DNA of 12,954 nt from the IMG/VR virus record IMGVR_UViG_2778261154_000015, positions 1 to 12,954 of that record; one strand, written 5' to 3'. Made by a program: the position numbers and the translations under genes. The notes under the pieces were generated by a model, which had not been told where the DNA came from, did no database searches, and saw nothing but the letters and a program-made list of their open reading frames with translations. This stretch comes from a virus (taxonomy: Duplodnaviria > Heunggongvirae > Uroviricota > Caudoviricetes). Below, one piece after another: positions 1,419 through 5,506 of the stretch. The first letter of the stretch is position 1; the number at the start of each line of letters is the position of its first letter.

Positions 1419-3860
1419 TTAAAAATCAGCCTGACTCGGGATCAGTTTTTGCCAGATAACTGAAACGTATTTTGCCTGGTAACGGGCGTCATCAAGTGCA
1501 TTATGGCGCTCACCTTCGAATGGAATAGCCGTTCTGGCATCGAAGTCTATGGCTTTCCCCAGCTCAACGATTGTGCGTACATCGCGATCGTTGTAGTAAC
1601 GCCACGGGCAGGGGATCCCCTGCCGTTCGTATGAACGGCGCAAAATCGTGTTGTCGAAGTTGGCTCCATTTCCCCAGACCTGAACAAAAAATTCACCGGA
1701 GTTTTCGTCGATAAATTCCCGCAATTGTAACAGTGCATCATCTAACGGGATTTCATCGGTCATAATGGCAGATTGCGCTTCGCGTGATTGTTTAAGCCAC
1801 CATTTAATGGTGTCCCGATCAATGACTCCGCCAGCAGTTTCCAGATCGATAGTCTTACTAAATTCCGGTCCCATATCTCCGGTTTGCGGATCGAAAAATA
1901 TTGCACCTATTGAGATAATCGGGGCATCGGGATTTTTTCCCATGGTTTCAAGGTCGATCATCAGATGAATCCCCGCTCTGCTGGTGGATGTGAGATTATG
2001 ATGACCGTTCGCCTTAATTAAGGGATCTGACGCCTCGCCAGTTTCACTATCGCTGGCATGATGCTGATTGCCGCCAGTGTTCTCCTTGTGCTGATGCGCA
2101 GTGCCTTCCATTTCCTCCGGATCATTTTCCTGAACTTCAGGCTGATTCTCTCCATCGAATATTTCCTGGTATGTTGCGTCACCCATCACCGCACCACAAT
2201 CAGGGCAGTTGCCGCCACCGCTCTGACCGCAGGCGGTGCAGATCTTTTCCGGTTCCTGTTGCACTACTGGTTCAGGTTGTTTCGTTTCTGGCTCGTTTTG
2301 TTGTGTATTTGGGCTGTTTTGTTCCGCTTTCTGGTCGTTCTGTTCCGTTTCTTGCTGGTTCTGGTTCACAGAATCGCGGGTCTGGATCCCCTTAACCCAT
2401 TTCGGATCATTAGGGTCGCTAATCCCCTCAACAAATTCACCACGCGATACAGCAAGTAACTTATCGGCGTCAGGCTGGCTGATATTGGCTGCCTGCATAA
2501 TTTTGTTTACTTCGTCAGCGGTGACTTTTACTTGGTTAGCGGAACTCACCTGCGACTGAGCATCCAGCGACTGCGCGTTCTGGCCATGTTCAGTTGTATC
2601 CGGTTCCATTGTTTCAGTTGTTGCCTGTTCACCTGCCATTGCGTCAGATGGTTGTGGTTTTTCTTCTTCTGTTTCACGCTCAGTAACCACCTCGCGGTTA
2701 ATTTCTTCCAGGATATCTTTTTCCGGCGTATGCCGGGCAGCTGTGAGAGTTTCCTTGCTGGGGTTCTCGTGATCAGTTTCCGTCAAATAGGCGTTGATAT
2801 ACCCCTGAAGGCGTCCCGGGTAGTGATAAAATTCAGGGTGTGCGCTTCGGATAAGTGCAAAAATAGCGGCGCGGGAATAGTCCAGAATACCCGGGGTTGC
2901 ACGAAGTGCTGCGGACCATTCTTTGAACGGACTTTCTTTGTTCAGAACTACTTCTTTTGCGCGACGATAAACGCTGCCCGGAATTTCATAAATATTAAAA
3001 TCCATCGGAAGTGTGGCTGCTGCAATCTCCACATCCAGTGTGTCGAGGGTGTGTACTAAATTCGGATTGCGATCGGTTTTGTTCCCACCGCCAGCATTAG
3101 CACCGGAAGCCGTGCGGGTGATGCGTGAAACACGATTTCCTTTCATCCACTCTTTTGTCAGCAGACCCCGATCAGTGTAGTCAGCGTCCAGGTATGCTTC
3201 GAAAAAAGCAGTTATTAGTCCCTGGTCTGAATTACCAGGATTAGGGAAAACTTTGTCAGTGTCACGAACCAGTTTGTGGAGGTCGCGAATCTCCAGCGAG
3301 TCGAGCAGACTGGTTTTATGCGAAATAGCCAGGGCAGTAACAGCCGGTAGTTCTTCAGCCTGTGCAATGTGTAATGCCTGGAGTTCGTCGCGTGAAACGT
3401 GCGTTACTGGTTTTTCGCTGCCGTGTTGAGCAAGCCAACGAATGGGCAGTTCCTGACCGGAGACAGGCAGAAGCATGCTCTCCTCAATCTCAGTCATGTC
3501 TTCGCCGTTGATGTTGGTATTGTCAGTGCTGGCTGGTTTGTCCTGAACAGAGGGGGAAGGGCCGATAAATGTCATTGTGATGCCATCTTTCCCGCCTTTT
3601 TCATAGCGGTTGCAGAATTCAGTATCAAACACGCCTTCTGGCGGAAGGTCGTCAACAACGGGCAAATTGACGCGGACGGGTTTTTTAAAGTCGTCTTCAT
3701 CATAATCGTTGTCATCCATTGCGGTAATGCAGCGGGAGATTGCAACAGATAATTTTTTTGCTGTAGTCCAGTAAAAACCACCTTTAATTCCCAGGCGTTT
3801 TCTTACTTTGTCATTTTTTGCTTCGCAATATAGTGCAAATTCTTCTTTATCAGTGCTCAT
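1419..3860 (-). CDS. Large multidomain protein with C-terminal DnaQ-like (DEDDh) 3'-5' exonuclease domain; probable full-length counterpart of ydfE, often annotated exodeoxyribonuclease VIII-like
   Basis: 813-aa ORF. The C-terminal region carries Exo I (IDLETMG), Exo II (VWGNGANFDNTI) and Exo III (HNALDDARYQAKY) motifs. Upstream of it are a Cys-x2-Cys...Cys-x2-Cys zinc ribbon (CTACGQSGGGNCPDCG) and a long Q/N/E/T-rich low-complexity linker. It sits between xis and ydfD, where the ydfE-type gene lies in Qin-type prophages. Confidence 0.8.
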   Translation of the reverse strand: MSTDKEEFALYCEAKNDKVRKRLGIKGGFYWTTAKKLSVAISRCITAMDDNDYDEDDFKKPVRVNLPVVDDLPPEGVFDTEFCNRYEKGGKDGITMTFIGPSPSVQDKPASTDNTNINGEDMTEIEESMLLPVSGQELPIRWLAQHGSEKPVTHVSRDELQALHIAQAEELPAVTALAISHKTSLLDSLEIRDLHKLVRDTDKVFPNPGNSDQGLITAFFEAYLDADYTDRGLLTKEWMKGNRVSRITRTASGANAGGGNKTDRNPNLVHTLDTLDVEIAAATLPMDFNIYEIPGSVYRRAKEVVLNKESPFKEWSAALRATPGILDYSRAAIFALIRSAHPEFYHYPGRLQGYINAYLTETDHENPSKETLTAARHTPEKDILEEINREVVTERETEEEKPQPSDAMAGEQATTETMEPDTTEHGQNAQSLDAQSQVSSANQVKVTADEVNKIMQAANISQPDADKLLAVSRGEFVEGISDPNDPKWVKGIQTRDSVNQNQQETEQNDQKAEQNSPNTQQNEPETKQPEPVVQQEPEKICTACGQSGGGNCPDCGAVMGDATYQEIFDGENQPEVQENDPEEMEGTAHQHKENTGGNQHHASDSETGEASDPLIKANGHHNLTSTSRAGIHLMIDLETMGKNPDAPIISIGAIFFDPQTGDMGPEFSKTIDLETAGGVIDRDTIKWWLKQSREAQSAIMTDEIPLDDALLQLREFIDENSGEFFVQVWGNGANFDNTILRRSYERQGIPCPWRYYNDRDVRTIVELGKAIDFDARTAIPFEGERHNALDDARYQAKYVSVIWQKLIPSQADF

Positions 3861-4327: not shown

Positions 4328-4496
4328 TATCGCGCCCTCAACAATGAGTTTTGTGATGCGGTGCCTGGTGCTTCCAGGTGACGTTAACCAGTTAACAATT
4401 AACGCCGGATACAGAGAATCCACCCATAACACTGTTTTCGGTTTTAACTGTTCCGCGTGCGCTCAGCCGCATTCACCACATCACAAAATTCACTTT

Positions 4497-4554
4497 AAAA
4501 AGGGCGGCAGAGCAGTCACGGAGTAAAACTGATACCGCCAAACGTCACCAGAAA
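4497..4554 (-). ncRNA. dicF: DicF small regulatory RNA (Hfq-dependent antisense sRNA targeting ftsZ and other mRNAs) with its intrinsic terminator
   Basis: The minus-strand sequence reads UUUCUGGUGACGUUUGGCGGUAUCAGUUUUACUCCGUGACUGCUCUGCCGCCCUUUUU, matching the DicF sequence as I recall it. It ends in a GC-rich hairpin (GGCGG...CCGCC) followed by a U run, and lies about 170 nt upstream of dicB. Confidence 0.85.
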
Positions 4555-4887
4555 ATTGATAACAGAGGGCGTTGCAGCGGGGTTGTCACTTAAGCGTATG
4601 GTCAACCTGACAACCCGGTGTCCTCAACGGGGAAGGAATAACCCCGCCATACTTACCGCCGCGCCATTTCGCGGATTGCCACAACCGGAAGCGCACGGTC
4701 GACGAAAATTTAACGACAGACCATTTATGAACTAACAGCCTCGCCGTGCGCTTTCGCGTTATGCCCTGACTTTTCAGGGACATATCCTTTCAGTAAACTG
4801 TCAGTGCCGGATGCTCACCCGTGTCCGGCGCACGCACTCCACCTCACCCGTGGAGAACTCCTTAATTACCAACCCTCAGGAGGGTGA

Positions 4888-5121
4888 ATGTTAAAATCAA
4901 CTCTTATTGCTAAATGCCTTTATCAAAATCGCATGGTAAGCAGCATTTCAATAGGCGAGTCTGCAGTTAAAAGTATTTTCGAAGAGTACTTTCCCGGGCA
5001 TGATTTTAATAAATGGAATACCAAATTACCGCCAGCAGTTTCAACGCGTATTCTGAAAGCAACTGAAAGAGCAAGTACAATTCGCGTTAACTATTTCATT
5101 AAAGATTTGTGGGATCTTTGA
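4888..5121 (+). CDS. Hypothetical protein (77 aa), unrecognised; part of an AT-rich insert
   Basis: ATG preceded by a strong Shine-Dalgarno (cAGGAGGgtgaATG). AT-rich coding sequence on the opposite strand to the surrounding operon. Its 3' end overlaps the 3' end of the convergent 135-aa ORF by 23 nt. No family recognised, so coding status is uncertain. Confidence 0.45.
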   Translation: MLKSTLIAKCLYQNRMVSSISIGESAVKSIFEEYFPGHDFNKWNTKLPPAVSTRILKATERASTIRVNYFIKDLWDL

Positions 5122-5506
5122 TATCCACAGAGCCTAAAGTATGTGCATATGGATGTGCTATTGTGCGCCCTCGCAGATTTGCATCATTTTCTAAATTCAC
5201 TGAACGAAACAGGGCATCAACAAGGCTCTGTACAATGCAAAGGCAATCGAAGACTGTCGCTGTTTCTGTTTTGATTGATGAAAGAACATGGCCATTCACG
5301 CAAACAGAAATTACCCGTTCATTAACATCGCTTTCCTGCTTTTGATTATCAGAACCATATAGCCCAGAAAAAGCATTGCGCACATTACGAACCATATTAT
5401 CGATGGTTTCTTTTTTGGTGTATGCCGGGTCAATTTTCACCAGACTATCACCGAGAGTCGTTGCAGCAATTGTCTGGATTTCTTTTGGTAAATCTTTAAA
5501 TTCCAT
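5099..5506 (-). CDS. Hypothetical protein (135 aa), unrecognised; extra gene within the dicB operon
   Basis: ATG at 5506 preceded by GAGG at about 6 nt, and only 22 nt downstream of the ydfC stop on the same strand. No hydrophobic segments and no motif I recognise. Visibly AT-richer than neighbouring genes. Confidence 0.6.
   Translation of the reverse strand: MEFKDLPKEIQTIAATTLGDSLVKIDPAYTKKETIDNMVRNVRNAFSGLYGSDNQKQESDVNERVISVCVNGHVLSSIKTETATVFDCLCIVQSLVDALFRSVNLENDANLRGRTIAHPYAHTLGSVDIKDPTNL

Follow-up and report, generated by a model that had tools for sequence, protein, structure and literature searches.

A covarying RNA domain in the ydfC–dicF spacer of lambdoid prophages: a candidate scaffold for terminated small RNAs

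What is the GC-rich, apparently non-coding stretch that lies immediately upstream of the small RNA DicF, and which of its hairpins matter? The question is posed by positions 4555–4887 of IMG/VR record IMGVR_UViG_2778261154_000015 (Caudoviricetes), all 12,954 nt of which were analysed and are hereafter denoted the window. A first-pass annotation described these positions as the minus-strand leader from which DicF is processed, rich in short inverted repeats, two of them enclosing a duplicated 10-mer. Along the minus strand the order is ydfA, ydfB, ydfC, a 135-aa ORF, the stretch itself, DicF, dicB, a ydfD-like gene, a gene for an 813-aa exonuclease, xis and int. The stretch is bordered by the following features:

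4553–4502, minus strand: DicF small RNA (Rfam RF00039, 76.7 bits, full length).
4501–4497, minus strand: U-run after the DicF terminator hairpin.
4875–4887, plus strand: mosaic junction and ribosome-binding site (CCTCAGGAGGGTGA) of a 77-aa ORF; K-12 homology stops at 4874.
4888–5121, plus strand: 77-aa ORF, inserted between ydfC and the spacer.
5099–5506, minus strand: 135-aa ORF, inserted between ydfC and the spacer.

Comparison with the K-12 ydfC–dicF region, which had been proposed as a check, gave 95.3% identity between the Qin prophage and window positions 4555–4874 (query positions 1–320). In K-12, ydfC ends 20 bp past this limit of homology; the window has an insertion (4888–5506) of two genes between ydfC and the spacer, which K-12 does not have. 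The adjacent DicF on the same strand, the homology to K-12, and the presence of ydfA/B/C upstream and dicB downstream together identify 4555–4887 as the untranslated minus-strand ydfC–dicF spacer in the dicBF-type early-left operon of a lambdoid prophage. The stretch is common, being matched in 4326 of 5426 complete E. coli genomes with one to eight copies per genome (median one; by megablast, below whose reach short REP-like copies fall), as would be expected of a prophage element.

The processing of this region is established in K-12. The polycistronic dicBp RNA is cut by RNase III, creating the 5′ end of a 190-nt DicF species (PMC10448788, citing Faubladier et al. 1990), from which the 53-nt DicF is then released by RNase E (PMC10448788); a 72-nt form has a 3′ end published as RNase III-made. 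No internal promoter was found in K-12 (Ragunathan et al. 2023, PMC10448788), the main species is the transcript that stops at the DicF terminator, and it takes inactivation of RNase E for read-through RNA to accumulate (PMC10448788). The window shares the order ydfA/B/C, spacer, DicF, dicB with the K-12 Qin pre-DicF locus, and the same RNase III/RNase E pathway is expected to operate. The assignment of the stretch as a DicF precursor is correct and was already known. The spacer consists of three modules, namely a structured domain (4565–4685), which appears to be unrecognised so far, a helix of about 20 bp (4681–4762) and a mosaic segment (4763–4887).

The statement that the stretch has no convincing ORF is borne out. 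The ORFs that overlap it, of 59 aa on the plus strand and 65 aa on the minus strand, are not conserved amongst 102 homologous variants: at most seven keep the sense frames open and 55 the best antisense frame, and the frame is shifted by indels, anchor distances modulo 3 being divided 48/40/14. It is scarcely credible that the stretch is a decayed coding gene, or that its GCCGGATGC...TCCGGC element is a REP-type repeat (discussed below). The two ORFs, and the hypothetical proteins that some phage records annotate there, are what a decayed gene has in its favour; but an annotation overlies the stretch in one of the 29 E. coli records listed, PGAP having placed none in the other 28. We ruled out a coding remnant on the unconserved frames, the indels that are not multiples of three and the compensatory substitutions in the helices described below; no conserved frame was found in the 102 variants.

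The GC content of the stretch is 0.50–0.56 as against 0.35–0.45 in its flanks, in agreement with its description as GC-rich. It contains these repeats:

4580–4588 / 4608–4616: 9-bp inverted repeat GGGTTGTCA/TGACAACCC.
4764–4769 / 4774–4779: inverted repeat CCCTGA/TCAGGG; on the minus strand, hairpin CCCUGA-AAAG-UCAGGG (4764–4779), at the upstream limit of the homology common to all DicF loci.
4806–4811 / 4824–4829: inverted repeat GCCGGA/TCCGGC; hairpin 4806–4829 (strand unassigned), with CTCACCCGTG in its 12-nt loop.
4837–4842 / 4850–4855: inverted repeat CTCCAC/GTGGAG; hairpin 4837–4855 (strand unassigned), with a 7-nt loop and the second CTCACCCGTG.
4814–4823 and 4843–4852: direct repeat of the 10-mer CTCACCCGTG, copies 29 nt apart.

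All four inverted repeats had been listed in the first-pass annotation, CTCCAC/GTGGAG one base out of place. The duplication of the 10-mer and the position of its first copy also stand, whereas the second copy, put at 4844–4853 with a spacing of 30 bp, lies one base nearer. Enclosure of the 10-mer by both hairpins is half right: the GCCGGA loop holds a whole copy, but the CTCCAC stem takes up the last three bases of the other. Against 1000 dinucleotide shuffles, 6-bp inverted repeats with loops of 3–20 nt number four in the whole stretch where 1.5 are expected (P = 0.11) and three in 4757–4887 where 0.54 are expected (P = 0.045); for a direct repeat of 10 nt within 80 nt, P = 0.02. Taken singly, the three 6-bp hairpins do not exceed chance; their clustering is only marginally non-random. 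Covariation shows the 9-bp GGGTTGTCA/TGACAACCC hairpin to be real. The annotated list lacked the two longest inverted repeats, 4577–4591 / 4633–4647 and 4686–4698 / 4744–4756.

The 9-bp hairpin belongs to a larger fold, which forms the body of the 190-nt pre-DicF and has the following parts:

4565–4685, minus strand: conserved structured RNA domain (‘module A’; covariance model R1, 150 bits, match 4558–4691).
4678–4685 / 4571–4578, minus strand: helix P1 (outer).
4670–4674 / 4659–4663, minus strand: helix P2 (hairpin).
4655–4657 / 4617–4619, minus strand: GGU/ACC helix, 3 bp.
4642–4646 / 4628–4632, minus strand: helix P3 (variable hairpin).
4608–4616 / 4580–4588, minus strand: helix P4 (hairpin), which is GGGTTGTCA/TGACAACCC, with a nearly invariant 19-nt loop.
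4647–4652 with 4596–4601, minus strand: probable pseudoknot of GUAUGG with CCAUAC in the P4 loop.
4554–4570, minus strand: AU-rich linker from the domain to DicF, single-stranded as predicted from its sequence, containing the 5′ end of the 53-nt DicF (made by RNase E in K-12; PMC10448788).

The structure was first named on 26 representatives aligned with MAFFT, in which 92% of the cells are paired and 15 of the 33 pairs are changed on both sides. Covariance model R1, built on the nested part of the structure, was then used to fit 50 distinct sequences, giving 36 pairs with 94% of the cells paired and changes on both sides in 19. Double changes fall in 93 cells of this larger alignment compared with 21 in shuffles, and sliding the 3′ partner by one to three columns lowers pairing to 34–55%. 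Fitting to the model makes the 50-sequence alignment lean towards the structure, but the independent MAFFT alignment agrees with it, and for each alignment none of 500 shuffles reached the observed values. The four-helix domain at 4565–4685 is therefore real, non-coding and supported by covariation. Its loop sequences GGUUGACCAUACGC and GGCGGUAAGUAUGGC are invariant across lineages with diverged helices. Its thermodynamic z-score, for the domain alone, is an unremarkable −0.7. The first of the two long inverted repeats (15 nt, 80% complementary) corresponds to no helix of the covariation-supported model: one of its arms mostly overlaps P4 together with the 3′ strand of P1, and the other the 3′ strand of P3.

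In the pseudoknot 99% of the cells are paired. Its covariation comes from one lineage, the phage P1 type, in which U-A is replaced by C-G, plus five wobble changes; two IMG/VR scans with ‘not-base’ codes for further variants gave chance matches only and no true members. For these reasons we call the pseudoknot probable, as judged from the alignment.

DicF is the sole Rfam family to reach its gathering score in the whole window, and at E values up to 10 over 4400–5000 the domain has no Rfam match, the one 13.8-bit chance match lying outside the stretch. A full-text literature search with the motif sequence returned no paper. Reviews refer to the spacer as a long untranslated region or as the ydfC 3′ UTR, and the K-12 literature treats it as an unstructured long UTR or precursor, in contrast to the conserved fold found here. 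Neither the fold of the pre-DicF region nor its occurrence outside DicF loci is described in the literature examined, although its conservation may have been noticed earlier, by Faubladier and Bouche (1994) or in the genome paper on P1 (Lobocka et al. 2004).

Immediately upstream of the domain lies the second long inverted repeat, which forms the core of an imperfect helix:

4741–4762 / 4681–4702 (core 4744–4756 / 4686–4698), minus strand: helix of about 20 bp, probable RNase III substrate (consensus fold of 20 variants).

This helix has two bulges and a variable apex, and its fold has a z-score of −2.3. Its 20 pairs are nearly invariant in the 20 variants; 13 changes on one side only retain pairing as G-U in the minus-strand RNA, and double (compensatory) changes are absent. 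Counted back from the DicF terminator, the 5′ end of the 190-nt RNA would fall near 4691, within the 3′ arm and some 6 nt ahead of helix P1. On this consensus fold the helix is probably the RNase III substrate that gives rise to the 190-nt pre-DicF, with a cut that we infer to lie near 4691 from the published fragment length; in published numbering the cut is at ‘813/814’ (PMC10448788). Just after DicF, a second long inverted repeat (4345–4372 / 4465–4492) forms a helix in keeping with the published 3′ end that RNase III gives the 72-nt DicF, and the layout in cdtI is alike, with a 25-bp helix after the terminator.

The hairpins of the spacer had been proposed as processing or stability elements. 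This is partly supported, the GGGTTGTCA hairpin being helix P4 of the larger domain; the hairpins with the 10-mer have no compensatory changes, and the helix that fits RNase III cleavage had been missed. The upstream segment in which the latter hairpins lie (4763–4887) is a mosaic. In 101 unique IMG/VR DicF loci, homology to the window always runs from DicF to around 4774–4779, and farther upstream breaks at 4823, 4834, 4852, 4874 or 4888; the CTCCAC hairpin is missing where the break is at 4852, 4834 or 4823, and some lineages have 4763–4887 replaced outright. Where a lineage has the hairpins, they are about 96% conserved, with changes mostly in the loops; between lineages the loop varies (GGGUGAG, GGGUCAG, GGGUGCG, GGAUAAG). 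The GCCGGA stem of K-12 carries one mismatch and its CCCUGA hairpin is weakened; in another lineage GCCUG...CAGGC takes the place of the CCCUGA hairpin; and two variants lack one 29-nt unit through recombination between the 10-mers, which destroys both hairpins. The stem changes found in the two motif hairpins are all one-sided. Conservation of the stems with compensatory changes, on which the first-pass annotation had staked its reading, is thus seen in the domain helices, including the GGGTTGTCA hairpin, but not in the two hairpins with the 10-mer, which are lost in some relatives.

Differing plus-strand ORFs start to the right of 4834, 4874 or 4888 according to lineage, which marks the segment as a junction for the exchange of cargo genes. 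The minimum-energy fold of the region has a long-range pairing of 4858–4887 with 4541–4572; the sequence involved is lineage-specific.

Might the 10-mer hairpins (4806–4855) instead serve the plus strand, as leader or regulatory elements of the gene at 4888, with their UCACCC loops pairing with GGGUGA in its ribosome-binding site or with the hairpins insulating it from antisense transcription? Several observations are suggestive. The segment 4757–4875 folds with z = −5.5 on the plus strand versus −1.2 on the minus strand, and on plus-strand RNA alone the GCCGGA stem can be extended to 11 bp (4804–4814 / 4821–4831) through three G-U pairs. TCACCC in both hairpins (4815–4820 and 4844–4849) is complementary to GGGTGA at 4882–4887, and, from lineage to lineage, several unrelated plus-strand ORFs have their start directly to the right of the hairpins. 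However, the difference in z is largely compositional, C-rich plus-strand shuffles folding poorly; the extended stem is lost in variants; no promoter-like plus-strand site was found within 4555–4887; and K-12-type loci, which are the majority, keep both hairpins with no plus-strand ORF. We consider a plus-strand role very unlikely.

Other identities for these hairpins were also considered. REP elements are imperfect palindromes of about 35 nt with a flanking GTAG, present in hundreds of dispersed copies per genome. GCCGGATGC and TCCGGC match the outer bases of the REP consensus, and it is in these bases alone that the REP-like flavour noted at first consists: 4806–4829 has a 6-bp stem and a 12-nt loop, forms no palindrome of about 35 nt and is adjoined by GTAG on neither strand, and the REP reading was rejected on this structure. 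Nut sites of the lambda type combine a boxB hairpin, which has a GNRA-like pentaloop, with an upstream boxA (CGCUCUUA) and an N gene. A boxB/nut reading of CCCUGAAAAGUCAGGG was rejected on its 4-nt loop, the lack of boxA in 4780–4800, the lack of an N gene in the operon and the broken hairpin of K-12. In an rnc mutant ydfA transcripts are lost (PMC10448788), which shows only that RNase III processing helps to stabilise the upstream RNA and has no bearing on the motif hairpins. These hairpins are ordinary, accessory at best and of little consequence alone; possibly they protect the 3′ end of the upstream ydfABC RNase III product.

The domain, unlike the mosaic segment, is widely shared. In a search of phage records, only window positions ~4563–4685 were common to cdtI, Stx2c phages, P7 and P1. 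Further members were gathered by a genome scan with the invariant 19-mer and an IMG/VR scan with a second conserved block, and include E. albertii, E. ruysiae, Shigella, Citrobacter, Trabulsiella, Erwinia tracheiphila and Izhakiella; in the scan of genome contigs with GGCGCGGCGGTAAGNATGGC, 21 of the 37 matches were chance matches in GC-rich genomes, dropped for lack of the second conserved block. The domain occurs with no Rfam DicF match in phage P1, P7, cdtI, the Stx2c phages, phage pPE4, Citrobacter, Trabulsiella, Erwinia and Izhakiella. The P1 copy (92 bits with model R1) overlaps the annotated ‘dicF-like region’ of the ban leader (NC_005856 68791–68892). Its likeness is to the structured domain upstream of DicF, and the terminator hairpin that follows is unrelated (GCCCAUCUUCGGGUGGGC).

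What accompanies the domain is a terminator. In 154 of 163 unique instances the domain is followed, at a distance of 7–54 nt (median 26), by the start of a hairpin of −8 kcal/mol or lower with a T-run behind it; by eye the count is about 161, the simple test having missed seven of the nine exceptions. The remaining two, the divergent members L211 and L232, have no terminator within 160 nt and are set in a non-coding region of about 1 kb. The terminator hairpins comprise 40 distinct sequences and, by eye, at least ten types (DicF, the cdtI type, the P1 type, GGCGGAAAUGGAUAUCCGCC and others). Since the downstream terminators are near-universal but diverse, what is conserved is a unit in which a short linker joins the domain to a terminated small RNA, some 170–200 nt in all, like the published 190-nt size of pre-DicF. 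The isolated phages Ayreon and Evi also carry this domain–linker–terminator unit.

Conservation and position suggest a role for the domain. The reading that we favour, at about an even chance, is that it is a cis-acting scaffold for the biogenesis and stability of the terminated small RNA downstream. RNase III would cut the helix of arms 4741–4762 / 4681–4702 to yield the 190-nt RNA, the non-DicF part of which would be no passive leader but a closed, self-contained four-helix fold, probably locked by the pseudoknot. The domain would keep the AU-rich linker unpaired so that RNase E could cut it precisely, giving the 53-nt DicF, and would pass from phage to phage as a cassette whose small-RNA hairpin is exchangeable. 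The CTCACCCGTG hairpins would lie outside this unit, in the variable junction that takes up genes in reverse orientation. In keeping with this reading, the 190-nt RNA would begin shortly before helix P1, the helix 4345–4372 / 4465–4492 flanks DicF on its far side, and in phage P1 the primary transcript begins with the domain unit.

Several points tell against the scaffold. It has no obvious need for invariant loops or a pseudoknot, and these features fit better with the two rivals set out below, a regulator of the terminator and a stand-alone RNA; L211 and L232 carry the domain with no nearby terminator; the ~20-bp helix shows no compensatory changes and the cut within it is placed from a fragment length; and the pseudoknot covaries in one lineage plus wobble changes, in a domain of z = −0.7.

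A published parallel for the scaffold comes from the MicL-type 3′-UTR sRNAs (Updegrove et al. 2019), which, in the account that PMC9438474 gives of them, have structure 5′ of a single-stranded RNase E site and a terminator-ended, Hfq-binding sRNA freed from a longer mRNA. Compared with that account, the present element is a multi-helix domain of about 120 nt with a pseudoknot and invariant loops, associated with many sRNA hairpins in several phage types, and its processing role is a prediction.

The near-constant proximity to an intrinsic terminator also raises the possibility that the domain is a cis-acting transcription element that acts on this terminator, by put-like protein-free read-through or riboswitch-like attenuation, and so gates dicB/kil, exo, xis and int. 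Its complex fold and invariant loops are typical of ligand- or protein-binding RNAs. The domain also sits in repressor-controlled early operons. In cdtI a strong pL (TTGACA-16-CATAAT) lies about 280 nt upstream of it, and in phage P1 it is just downstream of the C1-controlled P1ban promoter, starting about 25 nt past the annotated −10 box. The annotations of cdtI, Stx2c phages, Ayreon and Evi show no N-type antiterminator gene from the repressor gene to the domain. An alternative structure is offered in several lineages by pairing of the linker with the 3′ strand of helix P1 (CAACA/UGUUG), but in the DicF lineage itself this pairing is weak, and Qin-type operons have their promoter 0.7–1.4 kb away from the domain.

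The closest known comparison is put RNA, which suppresses termination by binding the zinc-binding domain of the RNA polymerase beta-prime subunit. The put RNAs of HK022 (PMC9378689) are likewise structured RNAs that precede terminators in an early operon under repressor control, in lambdoid phages lacking N. They differ in having two stem-loops, with one copy on each of the pL and pR sides (PMC9378689), whereas here there are four helices plus a pseudoknot in a single copy. The HK022 genome has no match to the spacer by blastn-short, nor to model R1, and model R1 finds one copy per locus in 100 of 100 loci and one in the window, with no second, putR-like copy in those loci or in the window, including its immunity region and rightward early genes. 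A put homologue was rejected on the lack of sequence similarity and the single copy per phage. The DicF-terminated transcript being the main species in K-12 (PMC10448788), a strong antiterminator is unlikely there, and this efficient termination, together with the one copy per phage, argues against a put-like element. Overall, we hold regulation of the terminator to be unlikely.

Finally, the domain may itself be the product: a separate, stable, trans-acting non-coding RNA of about 135 nt, closed by helix P1, freed by RNase III at its 5′ end and RNase E at its 3′ end, and binding a host or phage protein or another RNA. The loops that stay invariant whilst the helices diverge would suit such an RNA, as would the two published cleavages that closely flank the domain, its persistence while the downstream small RNA is swapped, and the two members with no terminator. 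Conversely, the tight spacing to the terminator in nearly all instances suggests a functional link beyond mere co-transcription, no candidate partner was found, and no such species is reported in the literature, in which the published Northern blots used DicF probes only (PMC10448788). We regard this as quite unlikely, and return to the scaffold as the favoured reading.

It is a tentative possibility, short of being probable, that the ~120-nt pseudoknotted domain is not a passive part of the DicF precursor but represents a hitherto unrecognised class of phage RNA. For annotation, the ‘dicF-like region’ of phage P1 and similar prophage segments are of the type of the domain at 4565–4685, not DicF. 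DicF counts among the longest-known bacterial small RNAs, and the 190-nt intermediate from which it is made has so far been treated as a mere precursor; a covarying domain combined with many terminator small RNAs points instead to a modular RNA cassette with its own function. Such a cassette could explain the two-nuclease pathway of DicF-type RNAs, and the domain is a candidate for how N-less early-left operons handle a terminator at the start of the operon.

Just downstream of the DicF terminator lies a long inverted repeat:

Window 4345-4372 / 4465-4492, minus strand: 28-nt inverted repeat, 79% complementary.

Its position agrees with the RNase III site published for production of the 72-nt form of DicF. 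Two long helices thus bracket DicF and the conserved structured domain upstream of it, the other being the probable RNase III substrate upstream of the domain. When the spacer (the ydfC-dicF untranslated leader) is folded in full, the minimum-energy structure joins the far-upstream GGGUUGGUAAUUAAGG segment to the linker and the DicF 5′ end (window 4858-4887 with 4541-4572, minus strand), and most of the pairs are G-U. The upstream side of this pairing, 4858-4887, is lineage-specific sequence.

Copies of the domain occur in other phages, one of them within a region named after DicF in its record:

L003 (phage P1, NC_005856) 2442-2612: 'dicF-like region' of the record.

No Rfam DicF match is present in this P1 region, which resembles the structured domain upstream of DicF and is followed by an unrelated terminator; within the ban operon, the copy has the P1ban promoter on one side and the tRNA genes on the other. 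Actinobacillus phage vB_Apl-pPE4 (L005, 2370-2520) carries a tandem duplication of the domain 3′ end together with the terminator hairpin. The phage is otherwise similar to E. coli lambdoid phages, with a DicA-type repressor, YdaT and Kil, a make-up unexpected for an Actinobacillus host.

The long terminator hairpin that follows the domain encloses AGGAG(N8)AUG in four loci (L161, L162, L156 and L173), two of which are positioned as follows:

L161 (Erwinia tracheiphila) ~4670-4740: terminator enclosing AGGAG(N8)AUG.
L162 (Izhakiella) ~2530-2600: terminator enclosing AGGAG(N8)AUG.

The enclosed motif may be the start of a small ORF, or the transcript possibly a dual-function RNA. Two further loci, L211 (4540-5540) and L232, hold divergent domain copies (approximately 111 bits) within a stretch of about 1 kb that has no conserved ORFs; no terminator follows either copy, and no Rfam matches were found to the surrounding stretch.

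In phage cdtI (L004), two further features were recorded:

L004 4896-5084, plus strand: IsrK and C4-antisense RNA family matches, side by side.
L004 ~2700-2790, minus strand: 29-codon arginine-rich ORF (MCKSMMMLIRRLTSVAIRFDAWEETRVQR).

The RNA family matches lie on the immunity region's rightward side, with the domain on the leftward side in the same phage. The 29-codon ORF is situated between pL and the domain, and phage Ayreon has a 39-aa ORF annotated at the corresponding place.

The window differs from K-12 in its exonuclease gene and in two inserted ORFs:

Window 1419-3860, minus strand: intact exonuclease gene, 813 aa.
Window 4888-5121, plus strand: 77-aa ORF, phrog_10348.
Window 5099-5506, minus strand: 135-aa ORF, phrog_1363.

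The exonuclease gene is intact in the window, whereas K-12 Qin has a truncated version (ydfE) with an IS2 interruption. The 77-aa and 135-aa ORFs, which are convergent and share 23 nt at their 3′ ends, constitute an insertion between ydfC and the spacer relative to K-12. Because other lineages have unrelated, reverse-oriented ORFs at the same place, the ydfC/spacer junction looks like a hot spot for the insertion of cargo genes.
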